Positions 5,652-37,667 of a stretch of 39,184 nt of DNA are shown piece by piece (within the stretch, counting starts at the first letter, position 1; the number at the start of each line of letters is the position of its first letter). The notes under the pieces are model-generated. The model was not told the origin of the DNA and made no database searches. It saw only the letters and a list, made by a program, of their open reading frames with translations. Source of the DNA: a virus; the UHGV virus genome UHGV-0103155. One strand, given 5' to 3'. Both the position numbers and the translations under genes were made by a program.

Positions 5652-5680
5652 CCACGCCAGACGTGGTTTTTTTATGCGTT
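5652..5680 (+). terminator. Rho-independent terminator
   Basis: Stem ACCACG/CGTGGT with 5-nt loop followed by T7-8 run, after the small antirepressor gene. Confidence 0.6.
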
Positions 5681-5829
5681 AAGCACAGCTATATCCGAAT
5701 TATGGTGGGCTGGGCAGGGGTCCGAAAGGACGCCGGTACCACTTAGGCCGGTACGCCAACCTTGTCCAGTTCACCACCAGTAATTGGCGTTGCGGTGGTG
5801 ATTAAAATCACTAAGTGGAGATAACCACC

Positions 5830-7600: not shown

Positions 7601-7612
7601 GTGACATGTCAC
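7601..7612. promoter_or_regulatory. 12-bp perfect palindrome GTGACATGTCAC (copy 1 of 3)
   Basis: Exact sequence also at about 25278 and 27542; sits where plus-strand cargo genes converge on the minus-strand lipoprotein gene end. Confidence 0.5.
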
Positions 7613-7989
7613 GCAACGCAATTATTACCGCGCCATGTAACATTTTTAATAATCTTATCAGCACCAAACTCAACGTAAACAGAGCAACTGAAATGGAGTG
7701 TATAACCGCCATCAGTTGTTGCGTATGTGTTTGAATATATAGTATTACCAATTAGATTAGACGTAGTATTATACGTTGTGGTTTGTGGTACGTTATAACT
7801 ACCAGAGCTTGAGTAAACATACACTCTGTTTCCATCTGGAGATGTAAGCTCTCCCTGAGGATACCCCCACTGCTGAACCATTGCGTCTATACTCTGCCCG
7901 CGCCACGTAAGCATATTTCTTTCAAACTGTGCAGCTGACTGGCATCCAACGAGAAGCATAAATCCAAAAATCAAAAATACTTTTCTCAT
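7609..7989 (-). CDS. Lipoprotein, function unknown (possible surface-modifying or superinfection-exclusion cargo)
   Basis: Signal peptide with lipobox LLVGC (MRKVFLIFGFMLLVGC…); Thr/Ser/Asn/Tyr-rich mature region; AT-rich gene. Confidence 0.6.
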   Translation of the reverse strand: MRKVFLIFGFMLLVGCQSAAQFERNMLTWRGQSIDAMVQQWGYPQGELTSPDGNRVYVYSSSGSYNVPQTTTYNTTSNLIGNTIYSNTYATTDGGYTLHFSCSVYVEFGADKIIKNVTWRGNNCVA

Positions 7990-8208
7990 AATTACCCCTA
8001 TCATGGAAAAACAGCACCAATCCACAAATTAACTAGTTATTTTATTATTCTTCCGAACAATACAATTCCGAATACTACAAAGCCGAACCATGCCGCTGCA
8101 CGCAACAGAGATTCCAATTGAAACCCATTTTTATCAAAATGTATGAATAGCATAAAAACGCTGCACATATTAGTACAATAAAAGTTATTTGAACCATCAT
8201 ATCTCCTT

Positions 8209-22004: not shown

Positions 22005-22297
22005 TCCTGTTCACTGGCCTCTTTGGCCATCTTCAAATACTGTTCAGGGCAATGCGCCATAACGCGCTGAAACAGTTCCAGCGCCAGATTGCGTTGCCCC
22101 TCATTAAATGCCATTGCCATAGCGTCCATCGGTGAGATAGCGGAAAACACACGGCCTTTCTCCAGCACCGACCAGACAACGCGACGCCCCTGTTCACTGC
22201 TCATGACAAAGCGAATGTCATCAATTTCACGCTGTGCCATGTCACGTTGCTTACGGGCGTTTTCTTCTTTCAGTTGATCGTCTTCGTAATCTGTCAT
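22001..22297 (-). CDS. Hypothetical head-module protein
   Basis: 98-aa charged ORF coupled between portal and scaffold genes. Confidence 0.4.
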   Translation of the reverse strand: MTDYEDDQLKEENARKQRDMAQREIDDIRFVMSSEQGRRVVWSVLEKGRVFSAISPMDAMAMAFNEGQRNLALELFQRVMAHCPEQYLKMAKEASEQE

Positions 22298-24262: not shown

Positions 24263-24299
24263 TTGACATTTAACGCACAAATTATTACCTTTCAGGTAA
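24263..24299 (+). promoter_or_regulatory. Promoter (-35 TTGACA) with overlapping operator-like site TTACCTTTCAGGTAA
   Basis: Consensus -35 hexamer followed about 17 bp later by AT-rich -10 region overlapping a perfect TTACC-N5-GGTAA palindrome. Confidence 0.45.
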
Positions 24300-24620
24300 C
24301 CAAAGAGTTCATTCCGGTTACTAACCTGACTGGCTTGTCGTTAAATTGAACAGGTGGAGTGAGCTTTTATTTTGAGCAGTACGGCGTATGGCACATGCGC
24401 CGGTAGCGGTCTGGATACGTTTAAGGGGCACCCTCCCTTGCTCGGGAAAACGAACCAGGTAGCCGGAATGTGCAAGTCGAGCGGTTTTATTCCGCGCACG
24501 GGGATTCACCATCCCGGCGATTCGGTGTGACGCCTCGGAAGAGACGAGGGTACAACGATGAGAGCATTTATGGAGCCGCGACAAAGTGTGGCGCCTTAAC
24601 AGGCTAAGTGCTCTCAGCGT
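24300..24620 (+). ncRNA. Unassigned GC-rich structured non-coding leader upstream of tRNA-Arg (candidate ncRNA or degenerate tRNA remnant)
   Basis: No credible ORF on either strand; several internal inverted repeats; lies between promoter and tRNA. Confidence 0.2.
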
Positions 24621-24621
24621 T

Positions 24622-24698
24622 GTGGCATTAGCTCAGTTGGACAGAGCAACCGCCTTCTAAGCGGTTGGTCGCAGGTTCGAATCCTGCATGCCACGCCA
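24622..24698 (+). tRNA. tRNA-Arg (anticodon UCU)
   Basis: Cloverleaf readable: acceptor GTGGCAT/ATGCCAC, D-loop AGCTCAGTTGG, anticodon loop CTTCTAA, T-loop GGTTCGAATCC, 3' GCCA. Confidence 0.9.
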
Positions 24699-24742
24699 GA
24701 ATCACGCCTAAGGACCGTGATGCCAGAAGTTCCAGGGGCTTG

Positions 24743-24790
24743 GCGGTGATGGTTTCCCTTGAAGGGCTATCACCGCCCTTTTTACAGCAG
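24743..24790 (+). terminator. Hairpin GGCGGTGAT…ATCACCGCC followed by CTTTTT
   Basis: 9-bp stem with larger loop and T-run, just downstream of tRNA. Confidence 0.4.
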
Positions 24791-24857
24791 GACGCCATTG
24801 CGATGACTTCATGCTGTAAACCAGTACAGCCACGGAAGGCATAACTCATTGCTTCCA

Positions 24858-24882
24858 GTTCGCCCGGTTCGCCGGGCATTTT
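24858..24882 (+). terminator. Hairpin GCCCGG-TTCG-CCGGGC followed by ATTTTTTT (terminator or attenuator directly before the Gp49-like gene RBS)
   Basis: Perfect 6-bp GC stem, tetraloop, T7 run. Confidence 0.5.
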
Positions 24883-24901
24883 TTTAAGGTGAGATTAGAC
24901 T

Positions 24902-25273
24902 ATGAGTGACAAAGACATTGAATCTGAAATTCAGGCTAAAGGTTTAGCCGCGCCGCGCGTTACGCCAGACCATATCGAGAGCATTATTGCTCAGGAGGCA
25001 TATTTCACAGCAGAAGATGGTGTCTTTGGCGTAGCCATAAAAGCGAAACATACTGGCGGAGAGGTAAACTACCAGCCGCACGAATCACTTTCTCTGCTGA
25101 CGTTCTGCGTTCTGGTGCTGCGCAACGGCTTCACCGTCACCGGAGAGAGCGCCTGTGCAAGCCCGGAAAACTTTGATGCGGAAATTGGTCGGAAGATTGC
25201 CCGGCAGAATGCTGTAAACAAAATCTGGATGCTTGAAGGTTACTTGCTGAAGCAGAAGTTAAGCGAGCAATAA
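24902..25273 (+). CDS. Gp49-like phage protein (function unknown)
   Basis: 123 aa with AAGGTGAG RBS; sequence recalls the Gp49-type small phage proteins; opposite strand to flanking structural genes. Confidence 0.5.
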   Translation: MSDKDIESEIQAKGLAAPRVTPDHIESIIAQEAYFTAEDGVFGVAIKAKHTGGEVNYQPHESLSLLTFCVLVLRNGFTVTGESACASPENFDAEIGRKIARQNAVNKIWMLEGYLLKQKLSEQ

Positions 25274-25277
25274 CACC

Positions 25278-25289
25278 GTGACATGTCAC
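25278..25289. promoter_or_regulatory. 12-bp perfect palindrome GTGACATGTCAC (copy 2 of 3)
   Basis: Immediately after the Gp49-like stop codon, in the convergent gap facing the large terminase gene. Confidence 0.5.
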
Positions 25290-25320
25290 AAACAGCCAGC
25301 CGATGAGCTGGCTTTGTTTT
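25290..25320 (+). terminator. Rho-independent terminator
   Basis: Stem AGCCAGC/GCTGGCT then TTTGTTTT. Confidence 0.55.
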
Positions 25321-25363: not shown

Positions 25364-26839
25364 TTAAGCATAGGGATCGTAATCTGTGATGGCCTTGCCT
25401 TGCTGGTTCTGCTGACCGGGAATTCGCAGACGCTTCGACACAGGGAACGCAAACGTCAGCAGTAGCGCATCGCCTTTACCAGGAGAACGCCCAAGCCGCT
25501 CTTTGATATCTTCCTTCGGTTCGATAACGATTTTACCGTCCACTCGAACTTTGTACTCTGCCGCCGACAGGTCGTCCGCTGTTTCATGGTCATCCAGCAT
25601 GCCGCCAAGCCTCAGCCATGTCTTGCATGAGTTGAACATCTCCCCACGCTTGTTGAGCATCTGCGGGTCAGTAGACGCGCCACCGAACGGAACAAGTTGC
25701 CATGTACGACCCCAGCCGTCACCGATTGACTTCAAACCGGTTCCGTAACCAAAGTCGATGAACACCGCGTCAGCCTGATACTGGTCTTCAAAGTCAGCGA
25801 TACGCTTCGCCATAATCAGATCGTCGGTAGTCTTGTTTCCAGTCCACAGCACCTTACTGTGTAGCCCCTGCCGCAGGTATATCACCGCGTCATCAACGCC
25901 TGAATATGCCGGGTCAACGCCGATTATCACCGGAGCATGTGCAACCTGCGCAGCGGTTACCACCCGTTTCATTGCCTCGTCAGTAAGGCCGGTAGGGATA
26001 AACTGCAATTCAGATGCATCAGGGAATATGCCACGCACACGGATTTTAACGAAGTCGCTGTCTTCCCCGTAGTCATCAACCCATTTCTGCAACTGCTGTT
26101 TGTTGGTACCTTCCACCGTCCGACTGTCAATCTGCGCAGTTTTCCAGCGGTGTTTATACTTGCGGAAACATTCACGGAAACGTCCGGTATTACGCGTCGG
26201 GTTTCCGAACGCCACCCAGATAATCTCAGTGTCTTCGTCCGTTAGCGCACCCTCGGCAACTTCCCACACCAGATCCGCAATGTTCGACGCTTCATCGAAT
26301 ACCACGATGATGCGTTTGCGCTCATTGTGTAATCCGGCGAATGCCTCAGTGTTGTGCTCAGACCAGGGGATTGCGTCAGCTCGCCACCGCTTGTCGTGCC
26401 CAGGGTCATTGCTGTACATCGCGGTAGCGGTACAGGTAAACCAGTCTTTCGTGATAGCAAGGTTCGACCACTTGATAATTTCCGGCCATGTCTTCGTTCG
26501 TAGCTGGTTGTCGGTGTTGGCGGTCACCACGACCTTACAATCCTCGCAAGTGGACATGCCCCAGTTGATCAGCATTGAGATGAATGCGGATTTACCAATA
26601 CCGTGACCCGAAGCACGTGCCAGCATAAGCGGCTGATAGCGCGTCTCTGGATTCTGCAGGTGGTCACGTATCTCTCGGAACGCATCGGCCTGCCACTGAC
26701 GTGGACCGGTGGCATGTGCCAGTTCAGTCCCCTCTTCCCCCCACGGGAACGCATAGAGGGCATAGCCAAGCGGATCGTGAGTGAACCCTGCAATATCCTC
26801 GATCAACTGCTCTTCAGGAGATAACGCTGTATCTGTCAC
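25364..26839 (-). CDS. Terminase large subunit
   Basis: 491 aa; N-terminal ATPase region with Walker A-like GHGIGKS and C-terminal nuclease-like region; coupled to small subunit gene (ATGA overlap). Confidence 0.85.
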   Translation of the reverse strand: MTDTALSPEEQLIEDIAGFTHDPLGYALYAFPWGEEGTELAHATGPRQWQADAFREIRDHLQNPETRYQPLMLARASGHGIGKSAFISMLINWGMSTCEDCKVVVTANTDNQLRTKTWPEIIKWSNLAITKDWFTCTATAMYSNDPGHDKRWRADAIPWSEHNTEAFAGLHNERKRIIVVFDEASNIADLVWEVAEGALTDEDTEIIWVAFGNPTRNTGRFRECFRKYKHRWKTAQIDSRTVEGTNKQQLQKWVDDYGEDSDFVKIRVRGIFPDASELQFIPTGLTDEAMKRVVTAAQVAHAPVIIGVDPAYSGVDDAVIYLRQGLHSKVLWTGNKTTDDLIMAKRIADFEDQYQADAVFIDFGYGTGLKSIGDGWGRTWQLVPFGGASTDPQMLNKRGEMFNSCKTWLRLGGMLDDHETADDLSAAEYKVRVDGKIVIEPKEDIKERLGRSPGKGDALLLTFAFPVSKRLRIPGQQNQQGKAITDYDPYA

Positions 26840-27432
26840 TGATTACCATCCTGACGTTCTTTGAGTCGCTTCCTGGCTGCCGCTATGCGATCAGCAATTG
26901 TCACATTCACATTAACATCCAGGCGTTCTTTGAACGCGTTGACGTCGACGTGCTTACCAATCAGTTCGAGGTTCTTCACCTTGTCAGGCCATTTAATTTT
27001 TTTGAGGATTGTCTCTATCGAATCCTCGTTCATGTTCATGATGGTCGATGACAGATCAAAGCCACTAAGCGTAGTGCGCCAGATTTTCGGCCACTCGCGG
27101 ATTGGCTTAAGGCTCCCATCGTCGTTGAGGATGTCGATCACGTCCATCTGGTCGATCTCCACCAGGCGCATGAGAACGTAATCAGCACTGACGCGCATTC
27201 GTTTGTTGCGCTCCTCCATCAACTCGGCAATCCGTTTTTGAATGCGTTCATCGCGCATCATGACACTGGCTTTAACTGCCGCTGTATTTGGGGAGAATCC
27301 TGCGTTAATCGCTGCCTGAGTCTGGTTTTCAGGCGTTTTGATGTATGACTGGCAATAAGCCTCCTGCATTGCTGTTAGTGGCTTAAATTGCGTTGATTTG
27401 CGTTTATAGGTTTTAGGTTCAGCAGGCATCAT
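26836..27432 (-). CDS. Terminase small subunit
   Basis: About 200 aa from internal start (MMPAEPK…) with AAGGTGG RBS; immediately upstream of and coupled to large terminase. Confidence 0.6.
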   Translation of the reverse strand: MMPAEPKTYKRKSTQFKPLTAMQEAYCQSYIKTPENQTQAAINAGFSPNTAAVKASVMMRDERIQKRIAELMEERNKRMRVSADYVLMRLVEIDQMDVIDILNDDGSLKPIREWPKIWRTTLSGFDLSSTIMNMNEDSIETILKKIKWPDKVKNLELIGKHVDVNAFKERLDVNVNVTIADRIAAARKRLKERQDGNQ

Positions 27433-27449
27433 AACCACCTTGGTAATAG

Positions 27450-27464
27450 TTACCGTTGTGGTAA
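27450..27464. promoter_or_regulatory. Palindromic operator-like site TTACCGTTGTGGTAA in small-terminase leader
   Basis: Perfect TTACC-N5-GGTAA about 20 bp upstream of the small terminase start, with additional half-sites around. Confidence 0.4.
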
Positions 27465-27541
27465 TAGTACCATGCAAAATAAAGCCGCCATAGTTGGCGG
27501 CAGTATTCAAAACCATCAAATTCATCATGCATAATCTACTC

Positions 27542-27553
27542 GTGACATGTCAC
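27542..27553. promoter_or_regulatory. 12-bp perfect palindrome GTGACATGTCAC (copy 3 of 3)
   Basis: Overlaps the stop codon of the 27550-27888 gene at the early/late boundary upstream of the terminase genes. Confidence 0.5.
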
Positions 27554-27888
27554 ACTATTAATTTCGTTTCATGCCAGCCTTTAGTCACCCAGCATTGCGA
27601 GTCACCATCACACGGGCATGAATTCACAGGAACTCTCTCGCCGCACTTACCGCAACGTTTTCTGCTGATCGATTTTATACGCCCGTGCACGCGTGCATCA
27701 TCCTGGCGGATCAGTAACGCTATATACTCACCAAATTCGTAAGGCGCACGCCCGGGGCGACGCGTGGCACAGTTACGCTCCAGCATTTCAATTTCCTGAG
27801 CATCAAGCACAATTTCCAGCTTACGCACACCAGATGCAGCTTGTCTGGCTCTCTGAGCGGCTTTGCGCTCTGCTGCTGATTTAGCCAT
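27550..27888 (-). CDS. Small basic protein with C-terminal Cys-rich zinc-ribbon-like motif (candidate DNA-binding regulator)
   Basis: About 112 aa; Arg/Ala-rich N-terminus, C-terminal CGKCG…CPCDG; last gene before terminase. Confidence 0.4.
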   Translation of the reverse strand: MAKSAAERKAAQRARQAASGVRKLEIVLDAQEIEMLERNCATRRPGRAPYEFGEYIALLIRQDDARVHGRIKSISRKRCGKCGERVPVNSCPCDGDSQCWVTKGWHETKLIV

Positions 27889-28162
27889 CAATATTCACCT
27901 TTATCGCGAACACCTTTACCGGTTTATCTCCGAAGTGCGGATGTGTGATTGTCTTGATTTCATACCCTTCATACGGGACGTCTATTCTGCGGCTGGAATC
28001 GTCGCGCTTCGGATATCCCTTTGTGATAATCAGGCGGTCATACTCGCGGAACATAATTCGCTTATTCCAGTAGTCATTACACAGGCGATACTCTTCCGTT
28101 TTCTCTCCGCGAATCATGGCATCGAAGTATTCACCTTTAACGGCAAGTTGCAGGTTAGCCAC
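27881..28162 (-). CDS. Hypothetical protein
   Basis: 93-aa ORF in tightly packed early-gene array, start/stop coupled to neighbours. Confidence 0.4.
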   Translation of the reverse strand: MANLQLAVKGEYFDAMIRGEKTEEYRLCNDYWNKRIMFREYDRLIITKGYPKRDDSSRRIDVPYEGYEIKTITHPHFGDKPVKVFAIKVNIDG

Positions 28163-28802
28163 GGTTAACCTCCTGCGGTGGTTTTGGTAGCGGCATCCAG
28201 TGGGTTACGTCATCCAAGATATTTCCTGATAAATACGTGAAAGCTCTATATTTTTTGTAATCAATTGGATTTACAACCCAGTTCCAATATGCGGCCACGA
28301 TTTCACCTTGACTAAATGCCAGTAACATTTTGGTGTCTTCCGGCATTCGATCACTACAGCTTATCCAACCATCCGGAATTACCGGAGAGTTGCCGGGTTC
28401 TTTAATGTGCAAGCGAGGCTCACCATCTTTTGGCTCAGGCCACTGGCGCTCCATGTTGATCTTCAATTTATCTTCCATAGCAGCGGTAATTTCAGCATCG
28501 CTGATGCCAGCACGGCGCTGTGCATCCCACAACAGAAACTGCATATCAGCCCACTCGCTAAGATCTTCTGGTTCGGCTGCGGCTTCCAGTGCCTCTTTTG
28601 AGAGGTGTTTCAGTGGACCAATGGGGCCAACGCAGCCAAATGTGGAGTCAGACCATTTGGCATGCTCGTGGCGAATCTGTTCGCGTTCCAGCGATGCCAG
28701 TGCGATTTCATAAGCCAGGCGCTCAATATTGTCTCGCACGTCCAGGCTGCCGATTCGCTCTCTGATTTCTTTAATCAGTTCTTTGTCGGTAAAAGTAGTC
28801 AT
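28155..28802 (-). CDS. DUF550/DUF551-type phage protein
   Basis: 215 aa; C-terminal …THWMPLPKPP… motif typical of DUF551 prophage proteins. Confidence 0.45.
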   Translation of the reverse strand: MTTFTDKELIKEIRERIGSLDVRDNIERLAYEIALASLEREQIRHEHAKWSDSTFGCVGPIGPLKHLSKEALEAAAEPEDLSEWADMQFLLWDAQRRAGISDAEITAAMEDKLKINMERQWPEPKDGEPRLHIKEPGNSPVIPDGWISCSDRMPEDTKMLLAFSQGEIVAAYWNWVVNPIDYKKYRAFTYLSGNILDDVTHWMPLPKPPQEVNRG

Positions 28803-28805
28803 GTG

Positions 28806-29114
28806 TTAGTCCTCATCCACTTCAACGCCATCTTTCAGCGTGATGCCGTGCCAATCATCAGCCCAACTGGTTAGTCCTGGCGCATCAATGCTAGGCATAT
28901 AGACGCTTGCAGTGTGGTAGCCCTTATCGTTATCAATGCTGGCAACGTGCTCGCCGTTGTATGCGCTCAGCGTGTCCAGGACGCTATAAAACTTTCCTCC
29001 GGCTGCCCTGAAATCCTTTACAGCCTTCACAAGGCGATTCCACGCTTTTTCCTGTTCTGGCGTCAGGTCGATTAATTCCTGCAAAGTTGCCATATCACTC
29101 TCCTTTGATGCCAA
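28806..29114 (-). CDS. Hypothetical protein
   Basis: 102-aa acidic ORF in early array. Confidence 0.4.
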   Translation of the reverse strand: MASKESDMATLQELIDLTPEQEKAWNRLVKAVKDFRAAGGKFYSVLDTLSAYNGEHVASIDNDKGYHTASVYMPSIDAPGLTSWADDWHGITLKDGVEVDED

Positions 29115-29451
29115 TGTTTACAGCCTGACAAGCCTCTTTGAGCACCCAGTCAACAGCGTCTTTCCATGCTCCGGTTTCGACTGGCGGATTTTCACTCTTA
29201 ACCTGTTCATAGAAGCGCACCGCTTTAATCAATCCTTCGGGTGTCAGTGGCACAGGCTGGGCCGTGAATAACGCCTGAATTTCATAGTTCGGCCTGTCGT
29301 TGCAATCCTCTTTTGTCGGTACATATTTCCAGTCACCAACCCACGGCTTCTCCTGAAGCGCCGTGTATTCAGCATCATGCTCAAGGGATTTTGCCAGTGC
29401 TGCACATGGTTCTATCTTATTGCCATTAATTTGGCATTTCGACTCGCTCAC
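29095..29451 (-). CDS. Hypothetical protein
   Basis: 118-aa ORF in early array, overlapping neighbours. Confidence 0.4.
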   Translation of the reverse strand: MSESKCQINGNKIEPCAALAKSLEHDAEYTALQEKPWVGDWKYVPTKEDCNDRPNYEIQALFTAQPVPLTPEGLIKAVRFYEQVKSENPPVETGAWKDAVDWVLKEACQAVNIGIKGE

Positions 29452-29753
29452 TGGTTGCCTCCTTTGCGAAGTTTCGCGGCAAAATCAGCCGCAACCTCTT
29501 TGACCATATTGGAAAGCGGAGTGCCACCTCCGAATTTTTCTGAGAACATCTCCACGCCCTGCGCCCTCACTTCAGCCAGGAAAGCATCGGTGGCTGGGGT
29601 TTCGACATTAGGTCGAAGCTCATAATCACAAACTCTTTCAATCCATGGTGATACTCTGTCGCATTTCCTCTTCTTGCGTTCACCGACCTTGGTTGCCTGC
29701 TGAATAATTACCCCCAGCAAATGCTTTCGACCTCTTCGCTCCATCCATCGCAA
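29448..29753 (-). CDS. Hypothetical protein
   Basis: About 100-aa basic ORF in early array. Confidence 0.35.
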   Translation of the reverse strand: MRWMERRGRKHLLGVIIQQATKVGERKKRKCDRVSPWIERVCDYELRPNVETPATDAFLAEVRAQGVEMFSEKFGGGTPLSNMVKEVAADFAAKLRKGGNQ

Positions 29754-30130
29754 GCATCGCCTCTATAGTCGTCAATTGCAGCCTCAGCAGCAGCGATAGC
29801 CTCCTCAGCAGTTTTGTGACACTCGAAACTAAATTCAGAGCCATATGAGAAATACATAGCCCCGGCCTTCAGCGCCGCATTCTCCGCTGCCAGCTCCGAA
29901 AACTTCTCGTGTGCCAACTTAACAGCCGAATCAGCCTGCTTAATTGACTCAATCGCTTTCTGCTGGTCTTCGGCCATCGCATTAGCACGCACCAGTTGCA
30001 CTTCCAGTTGCGTTGCCAAATCGCTGATCAGCTTTGCCACACTGCGCATATCAACGGCACCACATTCTGCTTTCAGTTCCGAAGCCATCTCATGCCCGGC
30101 GGCAACTAACCCTTTGATATTACTTTCCAT
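29708..30130 (-). CDS. Hypothetical protein
   Basis: 140-aa Ala/Glu-rich helical ORF. Confidence 0.4.
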   Translation of the reverse strand: MESNIKGLVAAGHEMASELKAECGAVDMRSVAKLISDLATQLEVQLVRANAMAEDQQKAIESIKQADSAVKLAHEKFSELAAENAALKAGAMYFSYGSEFSFECHKTAEEAIAAAEAAIDDYRGDACDGWSEEVESICWG

Positions 30131-30191
30131 CTTTACCCTCGCTTATCCACATAACTTATTGATTACATTGATAACTAAAAAGATCGTCGAT

Positions 30192-30536
30192 TCAGAACTC
30201 TTCGATGTTCCAGCCACCACCTGCTTTCTTTGGTTTAACCGTTACCCCGATGATTCGGAACGGATACTGATCTGCGGCGACTTTGGTTTTCACCCTGGCG
30301 TCGTCGGTCCAGAAACCTTTCACTTCGTGCAGTTCCATCTCGCCGGTGGCGAGCATCACAGCAAAATCTGGCGTATAGAACGTGTTGTCAGCTAACCGCA
30401 GCTTGATACCCTCAAATCGATACCAGACGATTTCTCCTGCACGTTTACGCAACTCAAGGTGCTGGCAATACGCAGATTCTGTTTTGTTCATCTGGCCTGT
30501 TTTGAGTCGACCAAGAGCCTGTATCTGTTTTCTCAT
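30192..30536 (-). CDS. DUF1064-type phage protein
   Basis: 114 aa, sequence pattern of DUF1064 prophage proteins; operator-like palindrome overlaps its RBS. Confidence 0.45.
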   Translation of the reverse strand: MRKQIQALGRLKTGQMNKTESAYCQHLELRKRAGEIVWYRFEGIKLRLADNTFYTPDFAVMLATGEMELHEVKGFWTDDARVKTKVAADQYPFRIIGVTVKPKKAGGGWNIEEF

Positions 30537-30539
30537 AAT

Positions 30540-30616
30540 TTACCCCTGAGGTAATTAAAAACCACATAAGACACGAAATCAATAGAGTTTAGAATACTTT
30601 GTTACCCAGAAGGTAA
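30540..30616. promoter_or_regulatory. Two palindromic operator-like sites (TTACCCCTGAGGTAA and TTACCCAGAAGGTAA) about 60 bp apart
   Basis: Two perfect TTACC-N5-GGTAA copies in the gap between replication gene P and the DUF1064 gene. Confidence 0.45.
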
Positions 30617-30653
30617 CTATCAAGGCGTAAAAAAATGCGCTATCGCGCTGGTA

Positions 30654-31454
30654 TTACTTGATAAATCCTGCCGCCTTTCCCCGCCTGTATTCCTCCATCA
30701 GCCACTGTGCCGGTGTTATTCCCCCCAATGTGGCGGCGTTAGGCATACACCCGAAACTTCGCCCTGGTGGATGGTAAACGTCTCTCCCTGTGTCCGGAGG
30801 CGTACTCATGGGTTCTGGCTTTGCCTGTATGCTGATCACCGGATCGGGTATCTGCTGTCCGGAAGCTACCTTTTTCGCCCAATCATCGAGCAGCCTGCGC
30901 GCGTGTTTCTCAACCTCAATCTCGCTAAGCTGGCGCTGATACATTGCACGGCGGGTATCACATACGACCCAGTACATAACCGGATGTCGCCACGGGAATC
31001 TTTCGGGACCACCAGGATATAAACTTTTTTCCTTGCTGTACCGGTGAAACTCCGCCATCACATCGTCAATGGTGACGCCAAGAACCATCTTGCTGTCTTT
31101 ACACCACTTGATGAATTGCCCTGGCGACGGCCAGAACGGAGATTCACTGGCGCGGGCGTGGCGCATACCAGCAGAAACCTGTTCACGGGTTCGGATCCCC
31201 CCTTCGGCAAACGCAGCAATCCACTGCTGTTTTGCAGCGACTTCCTGCTCTGGCGTCTTCAGGTTGGTTACCACTGCCGCCGGAAACAGTTGTTTCAGCT
31301 GTTTGAAAAGGGCATCAACAAGCCTCTCTGCTGACATGTTCACCACGTTGTCATTGTTGGTGTACTGATGCTCATAACCTGACATGCGAGAAAGGGCTTC
31401 TCCGTCACGGTTTTGTATCGCGGTAAAAACGTTGTTCACAAGAAATCCTCCCAT
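30654..31454 (-). CDS. Replication protein P-like (helicase loader, lambda P family)
   Basis: Recognisable similarity to lambda P (…GMR.AR…PF.PSPGQF..WC…); overlaps end of O-like gene. Confidence 0.75.
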   Translation of the reverse strand: MGGFLVNNVFTAIQNRDGEALSRMSGYEHQYTNNDNVVNMSAERLVDALFKQLKQLFPAAVVTNLKTPEQEVAAKQQWIAAFAEGGIRTREQVSAGMRHARASESPFWPSPGQFIKWCKDSKMVLGVTIDDVMAEFHRYSKEKSLYPGGPERFPWRHPVMYWVVCDTRRAMYQRQLSEIEVEKHARRLLDDWAKKVASGQQIPDPVISIQAKPEPMSTPPDTGRDVYHPPGRSFGCMPNAATLGGITPAQWLMEEYRRGKAAGFIK

Positions 31455-32251
31455 GCTTCAGGGCTGTTCCAGTGCGGAACGTTGTTATCAGGTAATGTTG
31501 ATAGCTTCTGTCTGCTAATCTGCAGCCGCCTTGCCAGCTTCTGCTCCCACTGTGCCTGATGGTATGCCTTACCCTCAGCCATCCAGTAAATTCTGAACTC
31601 TGCAAGTTCCTGTGCCGTTGGCAGACTGTCCAGGTAGATCCCCTGCAATGAGCTTTTCCGAAGAAAGTCATCTGATGGTTGCCATTGTTCATGCATGACA
31701 AATTTGCCTAATTGCCCTGGCCCACCAGGATGAACAAAGTTATTCATCACGGCGTTGTTTGCGCCGGGGTCATGAGGCACAGAATCCCCGGTTTTTGTCC
31801 TGCTCTCCCTCTCTTGGTTAAATGACTGGTTATATGACTGGTTCTGGATCCCGTTTTTGGGATCATTCAACATCCCGTTTTTGGGATCATTCAACATCCC
31901 GTTTTTGGGTATATTCCCGTTTTCGGGAACATTACCGTTTTCGGGTTCATTACGTCCTTCTAGGTTGCCTTTAATGTTCCCTTTTTTGGTTATATTAAGA
32001 GAGAAAACCCGCACTCTTTTCGTCGCTCCCTTTCTCTCTCCGGTATCTGAAATAAGCCCCATTTTCATGAGCGATATAAGCCCGGCCTGCACGGTTTTTT
32101 TATTCAGGCAAGTGTCTTTAACGAGGCGTTCTATGCTGGGGTAGCAGAGGTTATATTCATCGGCTCTGTCAGCCATCGAGAGCAGTATGAGCTTTAATGA
32201 CGAGCTACCTGGATCTGTCTCCCAGGCCCAATCTGTTGCATGTCTGCTCAT
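31436..32251 (-). CDS. Replication initiation protein O-like (N-terminal HTH, internal Asn/Gly/Pro repeat region)
   Basis: 271 aa; N-terminal wHTH-like region; internal protein repeats NGNVPENGNIPKNGMLNDPKNG encoded by DNA iterons; precedes P. Confidence 0.6.
   Translation of the reverse strand: MSRHATDWAWETDPGSSSLKLILLSMADRADEYNLCYPSIERLVKDTCLNKKTVQAGLISLMKMGLISDTGERKGATKRVRVFSLNITKKGNIKGNLEGRNEPENGNVPENGNIPKNGMLNDPKNGMLNDPKNGIQNQSYNQSFNQERESRTKTGDSVPHDPGANNAVMNNFVHPGGPGQLGKFVMHEQWQPSDDFLRKSSLQGIYLDSLPTAQELAEFRIYWMAEGKAYHQAQWEQKLARRLQISRQKLSTLPDNNVPHWNSPEAWEDFL
31847..31995. repeat. Origin-like iteron array inside the O-like gene
   Basis: Tandem repeats ATCCCGTTTTTGGG (x3, about 24-bp period) then CCGTTTTCGGG (x2) and an AT-rich tract. 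Confidence 0.6.
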
Positions 32252-32266
32252 GATTAATCTCCGCTA

Positions 32267-32467
32267 TCAGCTTGAGTGTTGTGGGGAGGAATTAATCATG
32301 ATCTGCTTAATCTCTGCCCTGATGCGACGGTTTGATTCCATGGTGCACTCAACACAGTGTCCGTTGTAAACCCAGCGTTCACTGTCATGTCCGTGCTTAC
32401 ATGGTTTTCCGGTGTAGTAGCGTTTAAGTCCGCGCTTTGCGGCATCAATACGTGTAATGATTTCCAT
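32267..32467 (-). CDS. Small Cys-containing protein (zinc-finger-like), early regulator candidate
   Basis: About 66 aa from internal ATG; CKHGH…CVEC motif; between cro-like and O-like genes. Confidence 0.4.
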   Translation of the reverse strand: MEIITRIDAAKRGLKRYYTGKPCKHGHDSERWVYNGHCVECTMESNRRIRAEIKQIMINSSPQHSS

Positions 32468-32546
32468 GGTAAGCCCTGTTATTAGTATTGGGATTACGGT
32501 TATTTTGTGCTGACACAAAAAAAAGATCAACCAGATTTGGTTTTTT

Positions 32547-32561
32547 GTTACCTTTTAGGTA
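32547..32561. promoter_or_regulatory. Imperfect operator-like site TTACCTTTTAGGTAC
   Basis: One mismatch to TTACC-N5-GGTAA; between cro-like gene and next early gene. Confidence 0.3.
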
Positions 32562-32617
32562 CGAATAGATATGAAAAGACCGCCGGATGGCGGTCTACAG
32601 AGGGTTGTGGCTGGATA

Positions 32618-32848
32618 TCATGAGTAGAAGAAGTACGCCAGTTCTGCTTTTGAGCGCAGCCATCGTCTTGTTTTACAGGCTTTAAAAAGCCCATTCATCA
32701 ATACCTTACCTGGCATTTTGCGCTTACCTGTTAAGTGAGTCTGGATATAGTGACTCGTCGTTCCGGCTTCCTGTGCGAAGGCTTCACGCTCATCCGGAGT
32801 AAGTGCAAGCCAGTGTTTTTTGAAATCGAAATGTCCGTTATCGCTCAT
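32618..32848 (-). CDS. Cro-like regulator (YdaS-type HTH)
   Basis: 76 aa, divergent from repressor gene; sequence pattern of YdaS/Cro-like small HTH proteins. Confidence 0.55.
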   Translation of the reverse strand: MSDNGHFDFKKHWLALTPDEREAFAQEAGTTSHYIQTHLTGKRKMPGKVLMNGLFKACKTRRWLRSKAELAYFFYS

Positions 32849-32884
32849 AGCTATTGCCTGATATTTATTTCAGATAATAAATAT

Positions 32885-32947
32885 TCACCCATAAGGTAAC
32901 AAAAATCAAGGATAGTTACCCATGGGGTGCATTTACCTGTTGGGTAA
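32885..32947. promoter_or_regulatory. Immunity-region operator cluster: three TTACC-N5-GGTAA-type sites between divergent cro-like and repressor genes
   Basis: Sites near 32885-32899 (1 mismatch), 32916-32930 (2 mismatches), 32933-32947 (perfect); first lies between a TTGATT -35 and -10 of the leftward promoter. Confidence 0.55.
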
Positions 32948-33002
32948 TATTGCTTTAAATTGAATCATCTACTGATTCATATATGAGGCGATTTTCCAGA
33001 AA

Positions 33003-33587
33003 ATGAAAAGTATCCAGGACGTCCGCAGGCAAAATCTCAACGACTTGATCGACCGTGAATTCAATGGTGTTCAGACGCGGATGGCAGAAAAACTTGGAAC
33101 TCAGGCAAATCTGGTAAACCGCTGGGCTCTTGGCAAGAAGGTTATCGGCGACCAGGTTGCGCGAAAAATTGAAGCTGCCGCCAATAAACCCCGTAACTGG
33201 CTTGATATCGATCGCTCGCTTTCTCAGGAAGGTTTTCAGCCTGTCGGCCCAAGCGACATTGGTCAGCTGGCGGCTCACAACCTGGAACGCTGGATGAGCG
33301 AAAGCCGCGACCTTTCAACACAGGGAAAACTTCACCGCGCATCCGGCGTCGCCCAGGTGACAATCAGCCGCCTGTTAAACAATGAGGTCAGCGTTTCCAT
33401 TTCCACCCTGGAGAATGTTGCATCCGCATTCGGGCGTCACGGCTATGAATTACTGATTCACCCGCACGACCCTGCGACTATCAACTATGACCGCTCGCGC
33501 TACGCATTGTTACCCGAAACAGAGAAGGCAAAGATCGAAAGTTACATTGAATTTATCATCAGCCAGAACGAAAAAAACAAACAATAA
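33003..33587 (+). CDS. Prophage repressor with two HTH domains, no S24 peptidase domain
   Basis: 194 aa; two XRE-like HTH segments; no Ser/Lys autocleavage motifs; divergent from cro-like gene across operator cluster. Confidence 0.7.
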   Translation: MKSIQDVRRQNLNDLIDREFNGVQTRMAEKLGTQANLVNRWALGKKVIGDQVARKIEAAANKPRNWLDIDRSLSQEGFQPVGPSDIGQLAAHNLERWMSESRDLSTQGKLHRASGVAQVTISRLLNNEVSVSISTLENVASAFGRHGYELLIHPHDPATINYDRSRYALLPETEKAKIESYIEFIISQNEKNKQ

Positions 33588-33610
33588 AATCATATTTTTC
33601 AGTAAGTAAG

Positions 33611-33632
33611 CCGCCTCATGGCGGCTTTTTTA
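33611..33632 (+). terminator. Rho-independent terminator
   Basis: Stem GCCGCC/GGCGGC with 4-nt loop then T6. Confidence 0.6.
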
Positions 33633-33644
33633 TTGCCAGCAAGA

Positions 33645-33720
33645 TTACCTTATGGGTAATTTTTTTAACTCATATCTATTGACATCAAACCAGATACGCA
33701 TAATAATTACCTCAACGGTA
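33645..33720 (+). promoter_or_regulatory. Rightward promoter region (TTGACA -35) with two operator-like sites (TTACCTTATGGGTAA, TTACCTCAACGGTAA)
   Basis: Two perfect TTACC-N5-GGTAA palindromes bracketing a TTGACA hexamer upstream of the recombination operon. Confidence 0.45.
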
Positions 33721-33740
33721 ACAGACCGAGGTAACAAATT

Positions 33741-33893
33741 ATGCAGTGGAAAATCATCAACGGTTGGTACTGCGTTACTGCATGCGGATTCATGAGCTGG
33801 AAGTTCCGCACCTTACAGGAAGGCATTAAGTGGGCTTTCGTCAGCAAAGAAGCTCGCGATGTGGCCAACGATAACGAGATATGGGAGGGCTGA
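33741..33893 (+). CDS. Small ORF (50 aa), first gene of rightward operon
   Basis: ATG with GAGG SD; Trp/Cys-containing peptide; below ORF-track size cutoff, tentative. Confidence 0.3.
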   Translation: MQWKIINGWYCVTACGFMSWKFRTLQEGIKWAFVSKEARDVANDNEIWEG

Positions 33894-33895
33894 TA

Positions 33896-34195
33896 ATGAA
33901 CGTTAATCAGCAGAAAAATCTTCAAAAAATCATGCTGGCATTCGACAAGGACTACCGCCTGTCAGAACAGCTATATGACCGACAAGTTGAACTGATTGAG
34001 AGCATCCGACTTCATCAACTGTCCTCAACTTTCGACGTTGTAACAGGCAAAGGCGTTCGCCAAGAAGTACTGGAGGCTGCTAAAGACAGCCCTGAGTTCG
34101 AAGAACTGATGGATGCCTATCGGCGAGAGGCAATGGCAATTATCGCCCGCTGGGATCTGGCGGATAAGCTTGATGGACAGAGGGACGCGGCATGA
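33896..34195 (+). CDS. Hypothetical protein
   Basis: 99 aa from internal ATG with GGGAGGG RBS. Confidence 0.45.
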   Translation: MNVNQQKNLQKIMLAFDKDYRLSEQLYDRQVELIESIRLHQLSSTFDVVTGKGVRQEVLEAAKDSPEFEELMDAYRREAMAIIARWDLADKLDGQRDAA

Positions 34196-35091
34196 TGCGG
34201 AACGCTGGAATCATGGATAGAACAAAATACATCGGAGGAAGCGATGTTGCAGGGATTCTTGGAATTAGCCCATGGCGCACCCCGCTTGAGGTTTATCTGG
34301 ATAAGGTCCAGCCACGTGTCAAACCAGTAGACCAAAGCAAGCAGAAAGTTTTCACGCGTGGCCAGCGTATGGAGCCATACGTAATAGACCTGCTTTCTGA
34401 GGAAACAGGGATGGAAATCGTTCATCGCGGAAACCGCTATATCCACCGTGATTACGATTTTATTGCAGCTGAGATCGATGCAGAAGCAGCGTCAGGCGAG
34501 AACATTGAGATCAAAACAGTTAGTCCGTTCAAGGCCAAAGAATGGGGAGAAATCCAGACAGATGCAATTCCTGTGCATTACACGGCCCAGGCCATGCACG
34601 GGTTGATGGTTACAAACAAACAGGTATGCGTTTTCGGTGTGCTTATCGGTGGCGACGACTTCCGAATCTATCGGGTTGAGCGTGATGAAGAAACTATCCA
34701 GGCGATCTTAGAAAAAGAAATCGCTTTCTGGGACCGAGTGAAAAATCTTAACCCGCCGGAAGCTACCAGCGTAAGCGATGTATCGCTGATGTTTGAGAAA
34801 GATGCCGGGACAAGTATCGAGGCTGACGGAAAGGCACTCGCACTATTCAACGATCTACGAGACATGAAATCACGCAGAAAATCACTGGAAGAAGAAATAG
34901 CTATATCAGAAGAGAAGCTGAAGATGTACATGCAAGAGCACTCAGTCCTGACCCTGGACGGAAAGCCGCTCTGCACATGGAAATCTCAGATCAGCAACAG
35001 ATTCGACCAGAAGCTATTCCAGTCAGTACACCCTGAGTTATTCGAAAAATTCAAAACAACAACGACACAACGCGTCTTCAGAATGAAGTAA
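34192..35091 (+). CDS. YqaJ-like viral recombinase exonuclease
   Basis: 299 aa; sequence pattern of YqaJ/lambda-Exo-type PD-(D/E)XK nucleases; immediately upstream of RecT. Confidence 0.7.
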   Translation: MMRNAGIMDRTKYIGGSDVAGILGISPWRTPLEVYLDKVQPRVKPVDQSKQKVFTRGQRMEPYVIDLLSEETGMEIVHRGNRYIHRDYDFIAAEIDAEAASGENIEIKTVSPFKAKEWGEIQTDAIPVHYTAQAMHGLMVTNKQVCVFGVLIGGDDFRIYRVERDEETIQAILEKEIAFWDRVKNLNPPEATSVSDVSLMFEKDAGTSIEADGKALALFNDLRDMKSRRKSLEEEIAISEEKLKMYMQEHSVLTLDGKPLCTWKSQISNRFDQKLFQSVHPELFEKFKTTTTQRVFRMK

Positions 35092-35100
35092 GGAGAAAAA

Positions 35101-36123
35101 ATGTCTATCAATGCACTTAAGGCAGCGGCTACCGGTAACCAAGTTGCACATCATAATGAGAAACCAACAACTCTGGCCGGACTTCTGGCAGACCCAAAAA
35201 TTAAAGCTCAGATGGCTTTGGCACTTCCAAAGCACATGACAGCAGACCGTCTGGCGCGCATAGCAACCACAGAGATCAGAAAGGTTCCAAAACTTGCATC
35301 ATGCGACCAAGCCAGCTTCCTGGGGGCAATTATGCAATGTGCCCAATTGGGTCTTGAACCAGGCGGAGCTCTTGGACACGCTTACCTGATACCGTTCGAC
35401 AAACGCCAGAAAGTAAATGGAAGATGGGAAACCGTATCTACAGAAGCACAGCTGATTATCGGCTATCGCGGAATGATTGACCTTGCCCGCCGCTCTGGGC
35501 AGATCCTGAGTATCTCGGCTCGTACCGTACATACAAACGACAAATTCAGCTACTCATACGGCCTGGAAGAAACGCTCGAGCATTTACCTTGCGAAACAGG
35601 TGACCGCGGAGAATTAACGCACGTTTACGCCGTTGCACGACTGAAAGATGGCGGAGTCCAATTTGAAGTTATGAGCCGGGCAGACGTTGAGAAAGTTCGT
35701 GCACTGAGCAAAGCCGGTAGCAGTGGCCCATGGGTTGATCACTTCGATGAGATGGCTAAAAAAACAGTAATTCGCCGACTGTTCAAATATCTTCCTGTTT
35801 CTATTGAAATGCAGAAGGCTGTTGTTATGGATGAGCGCGCTGAAGCTGGACTTAGCCAAGATAACGCAGCTGTTATCACTGGTGAATATTCCGTAGTTGA
35901 CGATGAGCGTCAACACCTGTCGCCAATTTCAGATTCAGAACGAGAAGAAGCTCGAGAATATATCATCGCGATACTTAATAGCCTGGATCCATCTGCTGAA
36001 GATGCAAAAACGATGTTCAAGCGCGCTGAAAATGAAATTAACACCATGGCTGAAAAGCTCGGTGATGAATATCACCAAAAATTCATGATGACGCTTAACG
36101 ATATGCGTCCAGAATTCGAGTAA
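35101..36123 (+). CDS. recT: RecT-family single-strand annealing protein
   Basis: 340 aa with clear RecT-family character; paired with upstream exonuclease. Confidence 0.8.
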   Translation: MSINALKAAATGNQVAHHNEKPTTLAGLLADPKIKAQMALALPKHMTADRLARIATTEIRKVPKLASCDQASFLGAIMQCAQLGLEPGGALGHAYLIPFDKRQKVNGRWETVSTEAQLIIGYRGMIDLARRSGQILSISARTVHTNDKFSYSYGLEETLEHLPCETGDRGELTHVYAVARLKDGGVQFEVMSRADVEKVRALSKAGSSGPWVDHFDEMAKKTVIRRLFKYLPVSIEMQKAVVMDERAEAGLSQDNAAVITGEYSVVDDERQHLSPISDSEREEAREYIIAILNSLDPSAEDAKTMFKRAENEINTMAEKLGDEYHQKFMMTLNDMRPEFE

Positions 36124-36172
36124 CCACCACCGCGGCGCCACGTGCGCCGCACTGCAACCAAGAGAGGTATTC

Positions 36173-36421
36173 ATGAAAGGTGCATTAGGTAAGAAAGAAC
36201 TCCTGGCGGTGGTGCCACTGTCATGGAGCACTATCGACCGTATGGAGCGCGCAGGGGAATTTCCTAAACGCTGGTATATCACCGATAAACGCTGCGCATG
36301 GAACCGTGATGAAGTTGAGCGTTGGCTTGATGAACGTCAGGCAGCAAGCCCGGCAGAGTTCCAGGGTAAAAAGCCTCCTGTTCAGCAACGTGTATATCGT
36401 CCCGTGAGCAACGCTGCATGA
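36173..36421 (+). CDS. AlpA-family HTH regulator / putative excisionase
   Basis: 82 aa; AlpA/Xis-like pattern (…LSWSTIDRMERAGEFPKRWYI…). Confidence 0.6.
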   Translation: MKGALGKKELLAVVPLSWSTIDRMERAGEFPKRWYITDKRCAWNRDEVERWLDERQAASPAEFQGKKPPVQQRVYRPVSNAA

Positions 36422-36530
36422 GTGCGCTGCTAAGGCACTGGAGCAAATGGTCAGGATGGTACTTATTCCTGGCCTCTGTTTCAGCATGGCTTTATCTGCT
36501 GGCATTAATTTTCAGAGAGGGTTGGATTAA

Positions 36531-36830
36531 GTGAGAAAGTTAAGCCGACTTGAAAAATATCACATGAATAAGGTTTCAATGCGCAGTCCGTCAAAGATTG
36601 TCGCCGTTACTCCTGCGGCGATAGAGATCGAAAAACGCGCGATTGAAAGAGAGAAAAAAGGGCAATTCCGCATTGCCGCTCACCTTTGGCTTCAGTGTAT
36701 GGATGTTGCTTCTGGTGATGTTGAACGTGCAAGGATCGCGGTTCGCAGGGACCAATGTATCACAAAAGGTAACGGCCTTCGCCGTGGCGACTATAGCGGC
36801 ATAGGATGTTGTGGGGTGGTTTATGACTAA
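36531..36830 (+). CDS. PerC/Pch-family transcriptional regulator-like protein
   Basis: About 90-99 aa; segment …FRIAAHLWLQCMDVASGDVERARIAVRRDQC… matches the PerC-family signature pattern. Confidence 0.45.
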   Translation: MRKLSRLEKYHMNKVSMRSPSKIVAVTPAAIEIEKRAIEREKKGQFRIAAHLWLQCMDVASGDVERARIAVRRDQCITKGNGLRRGDYSGIGCCGVVYD

Positions 36831-37473
36831 GAAATACACACTAATCTATGCAGATCCACCCTGGGTATACCGGGACAAAGCCGCAGATGGTAATCGCGGT
36901 GCCGGTTTTAAATATCCGGTTATGAGTGTGCTGGATATCTGCCGCCTTCCTGTGTGGGATTTGGCCGATGAAAACTGTCTGTTGGCCATGTGGTGGGTGC
37001 CAACACAACCACTCGAAGCACTAAAAGTTGTTGAAGCCTGGGGATTCCGTCTGATGACGATGAAGGGCTTCACGTGGATAAAATGTGGTAGTCGACAACC
37101 AGATAAACTGGTTATGGGTATGGGACACATGACTCGCGCCAATAGTGAAGATTGCCTGTTTGCGGTAAAGGGAAAACTACCTACGCGCATTAATGCAGGG
37201 ATCGTTCAGTCATTTACCGCACCGCGGCTTGAGCATTCAAGAAAGCCAGATATCGTTCGTGAAAAACTTGTGCAATTATTAGGCGATGTTTCTCGCATTG
37301 AACTGTTCGCCCGCCAGACGTCTCATGGCTTCGATGTTTGGGGTAATCAGTGCGAAGACCCGGCAGTGCAACTACACCCTGGATACGCGTTGGATATTGG
37401 CGGATTAACAAATGCATTCAGCAATGCTCCGCTGTCACCAACAGACATCCAGGGGCGGGAGCGTGCTGCATGA
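36823..37473 (+). CDS. MT-A70 family DNA N6-adenine methyltransferase
   Basis: DPPW catalytic motif near N-terminus (…LIYADPPWVY…); about 216 aa. Confidence 0.75.
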   Translation: MTKKYTLIYADPPWVYRDKAADGNRGAGFKYPVMSVLDICRLPVWDLADENCLLAMWWVPTQPLEALKVVEAWGFRLMTMKGFTWIKCGSRQPDKLVMGMGHMTRANSEDCLFAVKGKLPTRINAGIVQSFTAPRLEHSRKPDIVREKLVQLLGDVSRIELFARQTSHGFDVWGNQCEDPAVQLHPGYALDIGGLTNAFSNAPLSPTDIQGRERAA

Positions 37474-37664
37474 ACAGGGCATCACCAGCAGATTTAAGAA
37501 AATGCCTTGAAACTGCAAACATGCTTGCACACAGCGGGATCAGGTTTGTTCCAATTCCCGCTGTCACTGATGCTGAATTTGCAACACTGTCAGCAATATT
37601 CGAAAACAAAATTGAATCACTGGCAGCAGAAGCAGAGATGGAAGAAAATCAGCAGAACTATTAA
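37470..37664 (+). CDS. Hypothetical protein, translationally coupled to methyltransferase
   Basis: ATGA overlap with methyltransferase stop; 64-aa ORF. Confidence 0.4.
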   Translation: MNRASPADLRKCLETANMLAHSGIRFVPIPAVTDAEFATLSAIFENKIESLAAEAEMEENQQNY

Positions 37665-37667
37665 ACG

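Follow-up and report, generated by a model that had tools for sequence, protein, structure and literature searches.

Introduction

Ribbon-helix-helix (RHH) proteins are mostly repressors, and the small phage and plasmid repressors P22 Arc, Mnt, CopG, ParD and omega are among the closest known systems to the locus described here. This locus lies in the UHGV virus genome UHGV-0103155, a stretch of 39,184 nucleotides analysed at its full length (the window), which is a temperate epsilon15/phiV10-type (Uetakevirus-like) enterobacterial podophage with the majority of its genes on the minus strand. It comprises a minus-strand gene for a 112-residue protein (27550-27888) and a 12-bp palindrome, GTGAC-N2-GTCAC, which covers the stop codon of this gene and recurs at the ends of other transcription units. 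In comparison to Arc, Mnt, CopG, ParD and omega, the protein has an additional basic N-terminal helix and a conserved C-terminal module of four cysteines (Cys4), and the 12-bp sites are placed at gene 3' ends and not at promoters. At the sequence level, no family membership was detected in Pfam or NCBIfam. The best explanation, to which we lean without giving it quite an even chance, is that this RHH protein acts as a site-specific roadblock or insulator, possibly regulating its own synthesis.

E. coli MatP resembles the present system in having an RHH core after a basic helix, a C-terminal extension and a few dispersed palindromes with identical GTGAC/GTCAC half-sites. However, matS is a 13-bp element (GTGAC-RNY-GTCAC), whereas the spacer here is 2 nt and not 3; MatP has a four-helix bundle and a coiled coil that are missing here, and no sequence homology is detectable; and the sites here are distributed over operon ends in a 39-kb phage, not over a chromosomal macrodomain. 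Homology with MatP was rejected after hhalign of the family alignment against the E. coli protein (0.6% probability, expect value (E) 0.089), and no MatP family was found among the Pfam families reported for the aligned members.

In mycobacteriophage L5, the gp71 'stoperators' are about 30 asymmetric intergenic sites that are proposed to stop the elongating polymerase, and LacI regulates itself through the O3 operator at the 3' end of its own gene, which gives non-stop transcripts and self-limitation. The sites in the window share the dispersed intergenic distribution with the former and the position at the 3' end of the regulator's own gene with the latter; on the other hand, both of those regulators are helix-turn-helix proteins, whereas a roadblock together with a non-stop mechanism is proposed here. 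P2 Ogr and P4 Delta are likewise small Cys-rich phage regulators encoded outside the late operons, but the family studied here differs from them in fold (RHH and knob), in Cys spacing and in its coexistence with a true Ogr. Moreover, Ogr is the sole late activator at TGT-N12-ACA promoters, whereas the element of this family is GTGAC-N2-GTCAC at gene 3' ends. With the Q proteins of lambda, 82 and 21 there is the likeness of a DNA site near a terminator where the late genes begin, and zinc is bound by Q-lambda too; however, the 112-residue protein is half the size of the lambdoid Q proteins or less, its fold is different and no conserved promoter or pause element is apparent beside its site.

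The 112-residue protein and its family

The ATG start codon of the gene at 27550-27888 overlaps the stop codon of the preceding open reading frame (ORF), with a ribosome-binding site (AAGGTGA) upstream. An earlier sequence-only reading of this DNA had described it as the last early gene, encoding a basic, Cys-rich protein, and this description holds well: the product has an isoelectric point of 9.5, six Cys residues (at 40, 79, 82, 91, 93 and 99) and the features of a conserved putative regulator. It matches the family phrog_536 ('transcriptional regulator', E 2.7e-54) over its full length (residues 1-111). N15 gene 46 and the gp49 proteins of epsilon15-like phages were found by tblastn, and a similarity of gp49 to N15 gp46 is noted in the epsilon15 record. 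Nothing significant was obtained in Pfam (hmmscan, E<=1), in NCBIfam or in a direct PDB sequence search. The phrog_536 family itself is already known, its members, including those of N15-like telomere phages and P2-like phages, being annotated as 'hypothetical' or 'transcriptional regulator' only. The homologues form roughly 150 clusters at 50% identity and are present in epsilon15-like phages, N15 (gene 46), P2-like Yersinia prophages, Vibrio siphophages and other phages. In epsilon15-like phages the gp49-family gene stands last before terS, the gene of the small terminase subunit, though an extra ORF intervenes in some relatives. A protein labelled 'gp46' is among only nine phage proteins detected in the lysogen proteome of telomere phage NAR688 (PMC12042878). 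If this protein is a homologue of N15 gp46, the family would be expressed during plasmid-prophage maintenance.

When 59 diverse members were aligned, C79 and C82 proved invariant, all 59 had a loop Cys and 58 had C99, with the spacing C-x2-C-x8/10-C-x5/7-C; further conserved positions are R8, R13, E54, L59, P87 and G95. This pattern of Cys conservation points to a Cys4 metal site and, as judged from the sequences, the C-terminal module probably binds zinc. The predicted fold consists of a basic N-terminal helix, an RHH domain and a C-terminal Cys4 knob. The model has the strand-helix-helix order of the RHH superfamily, with the N-terminal strand predicted to pair in the dimer. When the C-terminal module was modelled alone, the mean predicted local distance difference test score (pLDDT) was 89.7, and a fold search with this model returned no structural relatives. 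The modelling strongly predicts an RHH DNA-binding protein with an appended zinc knob.

The sequence-only reading had also likened the architecture of the protein to Ogr/Delta-type late activators. This comparison could not be sustained, because no match to PF04606 (Ogr_Delta) was obtained for the window protein in the hidden Markov model search; this family is also absent from the 25 commonest Pfam families of the 59 aligned members. As a positive control, gp44 of a Yersinia P2-like phage was found to match PF04606 (E 1.8e-21), and the same phage encodes both a homologue of the 112-residue protein (gp11) and this true Ogr. Similarly, N15 carries a homologue in addition to a true Q (gp40, PF06323, E 1e-110), and the homologue-bearing locus L091 likewise has Q. 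The 112-residue protein gave no match to the Q families PF06323, PF03589 and PF06530.

The palindrome at gene ends

The 12-mer GTGACATGTCAC occurs exactly at three sites in the window against about 0.035 expected, and its recurrence is therefore not due to chance. Site 1 (27542-27553) contains the TGA stop codon (27552-27550) of the gene for the 112-residue protein, so the stop codon does lie inside a palindrome, as had been noticed from the sequence. Site 2 (25278-25289) is located between the convergent terL gene and the plus-strand ORF 24902-25273, next to a hairpin at 25294-25313. Site 3 (7601-7612) contains the TGA stop of the minus-strand ORF 7609-8025 and is followed by a terminator (7600-7583) with its U-run. 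A copy with one mismatch, GTGCCATGTCAC (22234-22245), is present in a coding region and also in TL-2011b at 16873; it may be a weak site or have arisen by chance. Across 14 non-redundant loci with a homologue (317 kb), GTGAC-N2-GTCAC was counted 24 times against 0.29 expected (P ~1e-37). In the same 317 kb, ten control motifs, in which the spacer was changed or the half-sites were swapped or complemented, gave 0-1 copies each, the matS-like N3 spacer variants being found once in comparison to 24 for N2.

The positions of the sites are conserved as well. Each of the three operon ends that bear the site in the window has an exact copy in epsilon15 too, namely at the gp49 stop codon, between terL and the convergent gp50 (2142) and at the gp18 stop before a terminator (19517). 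The TL-2011b equivalent of site 3 is at 32282, and in 53 of 75 close relatives a second site is found 2.2-2.5 kb downstream of the first. The palindrome covers the gene's own stop codon also in epsilon15, 65FD, Klebsiella phi13.3, Pantoea AH07, N15 gene 46 and the Yersinia P2-like phage, and this overlap holds across lineages that are 36-100% identical. Homologues of 30-60% identity keep GTGAC-NN-GTCAC with other central bases (GTGACTGGTCAC in N15, GTGACGCGTCAC in the Yersinia phage and GTGACCTGTCAC in Pantoea AH07). The codon before the stop varies (GTG, ATG, CTG, CCG, GCG, TTG) and its third base is always G. The variable last amino acid together with the fixed G therefore indicates a constraint on the DNA itself. 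When treated as RNA, the palindrome does not fold (free energy (dG) -2.9 kcal/mol, z-score (z) -0.45), which rules out an RNA hairpin and leaves the palindrome as a DNA element. Two further identities were rejected. The half-site spacing of CRP and FNR sites is N6, whereas the palindrome reads GTGA-N4-TCAC. A pac site or genome end does not fit either, as the phiV10, Tyrion and SPN1S records are cut at differing offsets after the stop codon and the N15 cos is far from the sites.

In other phages the sites lie in short intercistronic gaps, a few nucleotides before the start of the next gene; further placements are after a Bro-N gene (two tandem copies) and 3 nt before the protein's own start. 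Independently regulated genes such as tum, xis and the antirepressor operon are preceded by these sites, and one N15 copy follows closely after a promoter-like TATAAA in its antirepressor region. The palindrome accompanies the gene, and the terminator, promoter and operator described below go with terS. An extra ORF is placed after the palindrome and before the terS control region in about 20 of 80 close relatives and in Klebsiella phi13.3. No description of the palindrome, its stop-codon placement or its conserved positions was found in the epsilon15 record, in which many other sites are annotated, or in the searchable literature, the coverage of which did not include the primary epsilon15/SPC32H papers. 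The combination of RHH regulator, unusual zinc module and cis-site cassette is what is new beyond the annotated family and the annotated operators.

As a separate observation, N15 (L008, 33237) and L091 (5092), two distinct phages, each have one GTGACTGGTCAC copy within the coding sequence of repA, and its relative position is the same in both.

Terminators and ends of transcription units

Each site in the window adjoins an intrinsic terminator at the end of a unit. Between the early operon and terS, the terminator scan identified GCCGCCA-ACTA-TGGCGGC followed by UUUAUUUU (27476-27501, minus strand), in which the hairpin (27501-27484) has a dG of -16.2 kcal/mol and a z of -4.25 and is followed by a U-run. 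This terminator, which the sequence-only reading did not note, is kept in the relatives and is annotated as rho-independent after gp49 in epsilon15. The gap between palindrome and terminator is 40 nt here and 23 nt in epsilon15 and 65FD. At site 2, the stop of ORF 24902-25273, the palindrome and the hairpin with its U-run (dG -13.0 kcal/mol) follow each other in this order, and at site 3 the dG of the terminator is -13.8 kcal/mol. Read in the direction of the terminator's U-run, the palindrome comes before the terminator at each of the three sites. Sites 2 and 3 are convergent junctions, where the respective unit meets terL and a small plus-strand ORF (about 7416-7577), and there the palindrome is on the side of the hairpin that has no U-run for the opposing transcript.

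Some features of the genes around sites 2 and 3 may be recorded here. The small ORF at about 7416-7577, whose N-terminus is signal-peptide-like (MKKAFAALFVLLSLVASTQAFA...), shares the bidirectional hairpin near site 3; its TL-2011b homologue is annotated 'putative transmembrane anchored protein'. Site 2 and its terminator end a plus-strand insert (24285-25313) between terL and the portal region, which carries an operator-flanked TTGACA promoter region, a tRNA (24622-24695, 73 bits) and ORF 24902-25273 of the N4 gp49/Sf6 gp66 family (PF13876, E 2.4e-35).

Candidate late promoter and repressor operators

The late operon starts at terS (26836-27432, minus strand; Pfam Terminase_2, E 1.6e-29; phrog_51) and, in agreement with the sequence-only reading, not after a lysis cassette; the holin and endolysin genes are placed at its distal end (757-2084, minus strand). 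The start of terS was set at MMPAEP, following the TL-2011b and epsilon15 annotations. Directly after the terminator U-run, a candidate late promoter with an extended -10 element, TGGTACTAT (TGnTAYTAT; 27464-27472, minus strand), can be read from the sequence. Variation among 80 relatives, epsilon15 and 65FD is confined to the 'n' of TGn and the third base of the hexamer. At the last T of the -10 hexamer begins TTACCACAACGGTAA (27450-27464, minus-strand reading), a repressor operator of the form TTACC-N5-GGTAA; the operator-like site that had been pointed out in the terminase leader is hence the same motif as that of O_R and O_L. Ten exact copies are present in the window against well under 1 expected, and no variant with another spacer occurs in it. 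They are located at O_R (32933), at O_L (33645 and 33707), at an internal early promoter (30540 and 30602), in the terS leader (27450), upstream of the structural genes (24285) and in the immI region (5166, 5546 and 6611), with one-mismatch copies at 27432, 32548 and 32885 (O_R) and elsewhere. The register in which the operator starts at the last -10 base is the same for terS, P_L (33679-33721) and the internal promoter (30540-30582).

TL-2011b has 10 operator copies at analogous positions, and in the epsilon15 GenBank record 7 of 11 copies are annotated as repressor sites, including a 'repressor' at 12-27 just before terS. The operators are already known for epsilon15, and they form a system separate from the 112-residue protein. 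Phage P1 has a multi-operator repressor layout, and the likeness to P1 C1 and to epsilon15/SPC32H Rep lies in one motif, TTACC-N5-GGTAA, being used at P_L, P_R and the internal early, terS, structural and immI regions.

From its sequence, the early/late boundary can be described as a terminator followed by a promoter with the operator of the prophage repressor, so that late transcription can be directly repressor-controlled. Because the terS promoter carries this operator, a Q-like activator is not required for late-gene silence in the lysogen, a statement that does not extend to the temporal delay. Of the earlier interpretation, the putative regulator at the early/late boundary stands, and the need for a dedicated late activator is weakened. 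No N- or Q-type antiterminator had been recognised in that reading, and the same result was obtained when 30 early-region ORFs (27550-38918, both strands) were compared with PHROGs, and 20 of them also with Pfam: none of the 30 and none of the 20, respectively, matched a lambda N or Q family. The ORFs 34192-35091, 35101-36123, 37668-38918 and 38379-38825 were compared with PHROGs only; in case of lambda N, the negative result is that of these family searches, with partial Pfam coverage and with no pattern search for boxA/boxB.

The internal early promoter region (30537-30653, minus strand), between the helicase-loader gene and the next ORF, has a terminator-like hairpin and T-run followed by TTGATT-17-TTTAAT, with one operator beginning at the final T of this -10 hexamer and another located 62 bp upstream. 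With this operator-bearing promoter, the 'early right operon' therefore consists of at least two repressor-controlled units.

Proposed role and alternative explanations

It is very probable that the 112-residue protein binds the palindrome, and in the role proposed here an RHH dimer would occupy GTGAC-N2-GTCAC. The bound protein would act as a bidirectional roadblock or insulator at unit boundaries, where it would keep the polymerase from reading on into a convergent gene or into a following unit that has its own control. Taken alone, this blocking of RNA polymerase is inferred with the same reserve as the whole proposal, or slightly more. The site on its own stop codon may limit the synthesis of the protein, as stalled transcripts would have no stop codon, and such a self-limiting loop would set in once the protein accumulates. 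The late operon would not be switched on by the 112-residue protein but would be transcribed from its own extended -10 promoter, and the late genes would be held off directly by the prophage repressor. A roadblock or insulator is preferred because the spacing to the terminators is variable, because two sites are at convergent junctions on the side of the hairpin without an opposing U-run, because the sites in other phages are just ahead of independently regulated genes, and because RHH proteins are predominantly repressors.

Several points weigh against this proposal. The pairing of protein and palindrome is predicted from their co-occurrence, and the exact site is missing in two homologue-bearing loci, L101 (3.9 kb) and L103 (20 kb). 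RHH proteins usually use longer or repeated operators than one 12-mer. A roadblock beside an already good terminator looks redundant, and the order of palindrome before terminator also fits a terminator-modulating (antitermination) factor. Further, in Vibrio phage K303 (L010) the copies at 21342 and 35942 end exactly 19 nt before start codons, one of which is that of terS, and this site is hard to rationalise, as a pure roadblock there would shut off the late genes.

The 112-residue protein might instead be the late-gene switch, which at the palindrome allows read-through or activates a promoter and so replaces Q in epsilon15-like phages. We consider this unlikely. It would agree with the finding of no N or Q homologue in the window, with the gene being the last one before a strong terminator and terS, and with a palindrome ahead of a functional terminator at all three sites. 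The layout of promoter, binding site and terminator at site 1 also recalls lambda pR'-tR', as a weak sigma-70-like GTGACA-18-CATGAT overlaps the site with the terminator downstream, and GTGACA-17-TAAATT is found at the same place in epsilon15 and 65FD. However, Klebsiella phi13.3, N15 and the relatives that carry the extra ORF lack the -10-like element, and its spacing varies. The spacing of palindrome and terminator is not conserved either, with an extra gene between them in relatives, and homologues coexist with a real Q (N15, L091) and with a real Ogr (Yersinia phage). At sites 2 and 3, antitermination would lead to harmful antisense transcription into terL or the convergent genes, terS has its own conserved promoter and repressor operator, and the predominance of repressors among RHH proteins also speaks against a switch of this kind. 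To our knowledge, no antiterminator is described that is loaded at a double-stranded DNA site and acts on the elongating polymerase. A more general form of this idea, in which the gp49/gp46 family would be a terminator-gating factor of a novel type, a zinc RHH protein on matS-like 12-bp sites directly ahead of the inter-operon terminators, one of them on its own stop codon, which decides whether the polymerase stops or passes and gives epsilon15-like phages a temporal switch without a promoter-proximal pause, is rated somewhat lower again.

Transcription may also not be the primary target. A MatP-like organiser would bridge the two or three matS-like sites through its C-terminal module and so loop, condense or tether the phage genome, or else the host MatP would read the sites. 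The likeness to MatP in domain order and half-sites is set against the differences in spacer, C-terminal structure and site distribution given above, and we regard such a role as improbable. Still less probable is that the palindrome is not the target of the protein at all but a mosaic-junction or recombination linker, or a host-factor site travelling with the 3' end of the gene. The mosaic breakpoints of the relatives do fall directly after ...GTGACATGTCACGA. However, the motif recurs with different central dinucleotides in homologues that are only 30-45% identical and in unrelated flanks, there are extra copies far from the gene, the excess over expectation is large and spacing variants are absent, and a palindrome suits a dimeric RHH protein. 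Finally, a C-terminal TraR/DksA-type zinc finger docking on RNA polymerase, making the protein a DNA-tethered polymerase modulator, is hardly credible, as the top PDB profile matches to TraR (6n57_M, E 0.036) and YbiI (E 0.064), which cover residues 48-109 including CxxCGxxxP, are marginal and are not backed by Pfam or by fold searches with the whole or the C-terminal model, and the second CxxC of the CxxC-N17-CxxC finger is replaced.

If the roadblock or insulator role is correct, it would suggest that phages have a compact means of keeping separately controlled transcription units apart and of making a regulator limit itself. With the late genes placed behind a promoter that carries a prophage repressor operator, no Q-like cascade is needed in this phage group. 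E. coli, Salmonella, Citrobacter and Klebsiella very commonly carry epsilon15-like (Uetakevirus) prophages, and the tie of the protein to a precise, highly over-represented motif provides an immediately testable pair of regulator and site. The resemblance to matS also raises the question whether the RHH proteins of phage and host recognise their sites in the same way or compete for them.

Genome context and other features

PhiV10, TL-2011b, PAS61, ZX5 and related phages match positions 26500-29500 at 94-98% identity (megablast). The immunity region contains the prophage repressor gene (33003-33587, plus strand) and a Cro-like gene (32618-32848). Downstream of it, in the minus-strand reading, are the replication genes (30654-32251) and then nin-like genes, followed by the ORF 27550-27888, terS, terL, the portal gene and the head and tail genes.

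A fusion ORF (28155-28802, minus strand) combines a dATP/dGTP pyrophosphohydrolase domain (PF04447, E 2.9e-42) with DUF551 (E 4.2e-21), and it is probably this ORF, and not 27550-27888, that accounts for many DNA matches to Shiga toxin (Stx) phages. A Stx-phage link of the 112-residue protein was rejected, as these matches come from the neighbouring DUF551 and pyrophosphohydrolase genes, and by tblastn the protein was not found in records named Stx-converting phage. The ORF 36531-36830 (plus strand) in the leftward operon encodes a homologue of PerC-family transcriptional activators (PF06069, E 6e-7; phrog_868, E 5.7e-62) and adjoins an MT-A70 methyltransferase gene; epsilon15 gp31 is annotated 'transcriptional activator'. 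The ORF 36531-36830 was set aside as a conventional late activator, the PerC homologue being of neither Ogr nor Q type.

The sole Rfam matches at the gathering threshold were the tRNA, isrK and C4. The isrK RNA (67.7 bits; 5597-5673, plus strand) and the C4 antisense RNA (66 bits; 5698-5781, plus strand) are both directly upstream of the anti-repressor gene (5815-6540) and represent a P1/P7-type immI RNA control module in an epsilon15-like phage, preceded by the repressor operator at 5546. Within the replication-initiator gene (31436-32251, minus strand), two tandem TGGGATCATTCAACATCCCG followed by TTTTTGGG (31858-31901, plus strand) were flagged by the terminator scan, yet these repeats look more like origin iterons.

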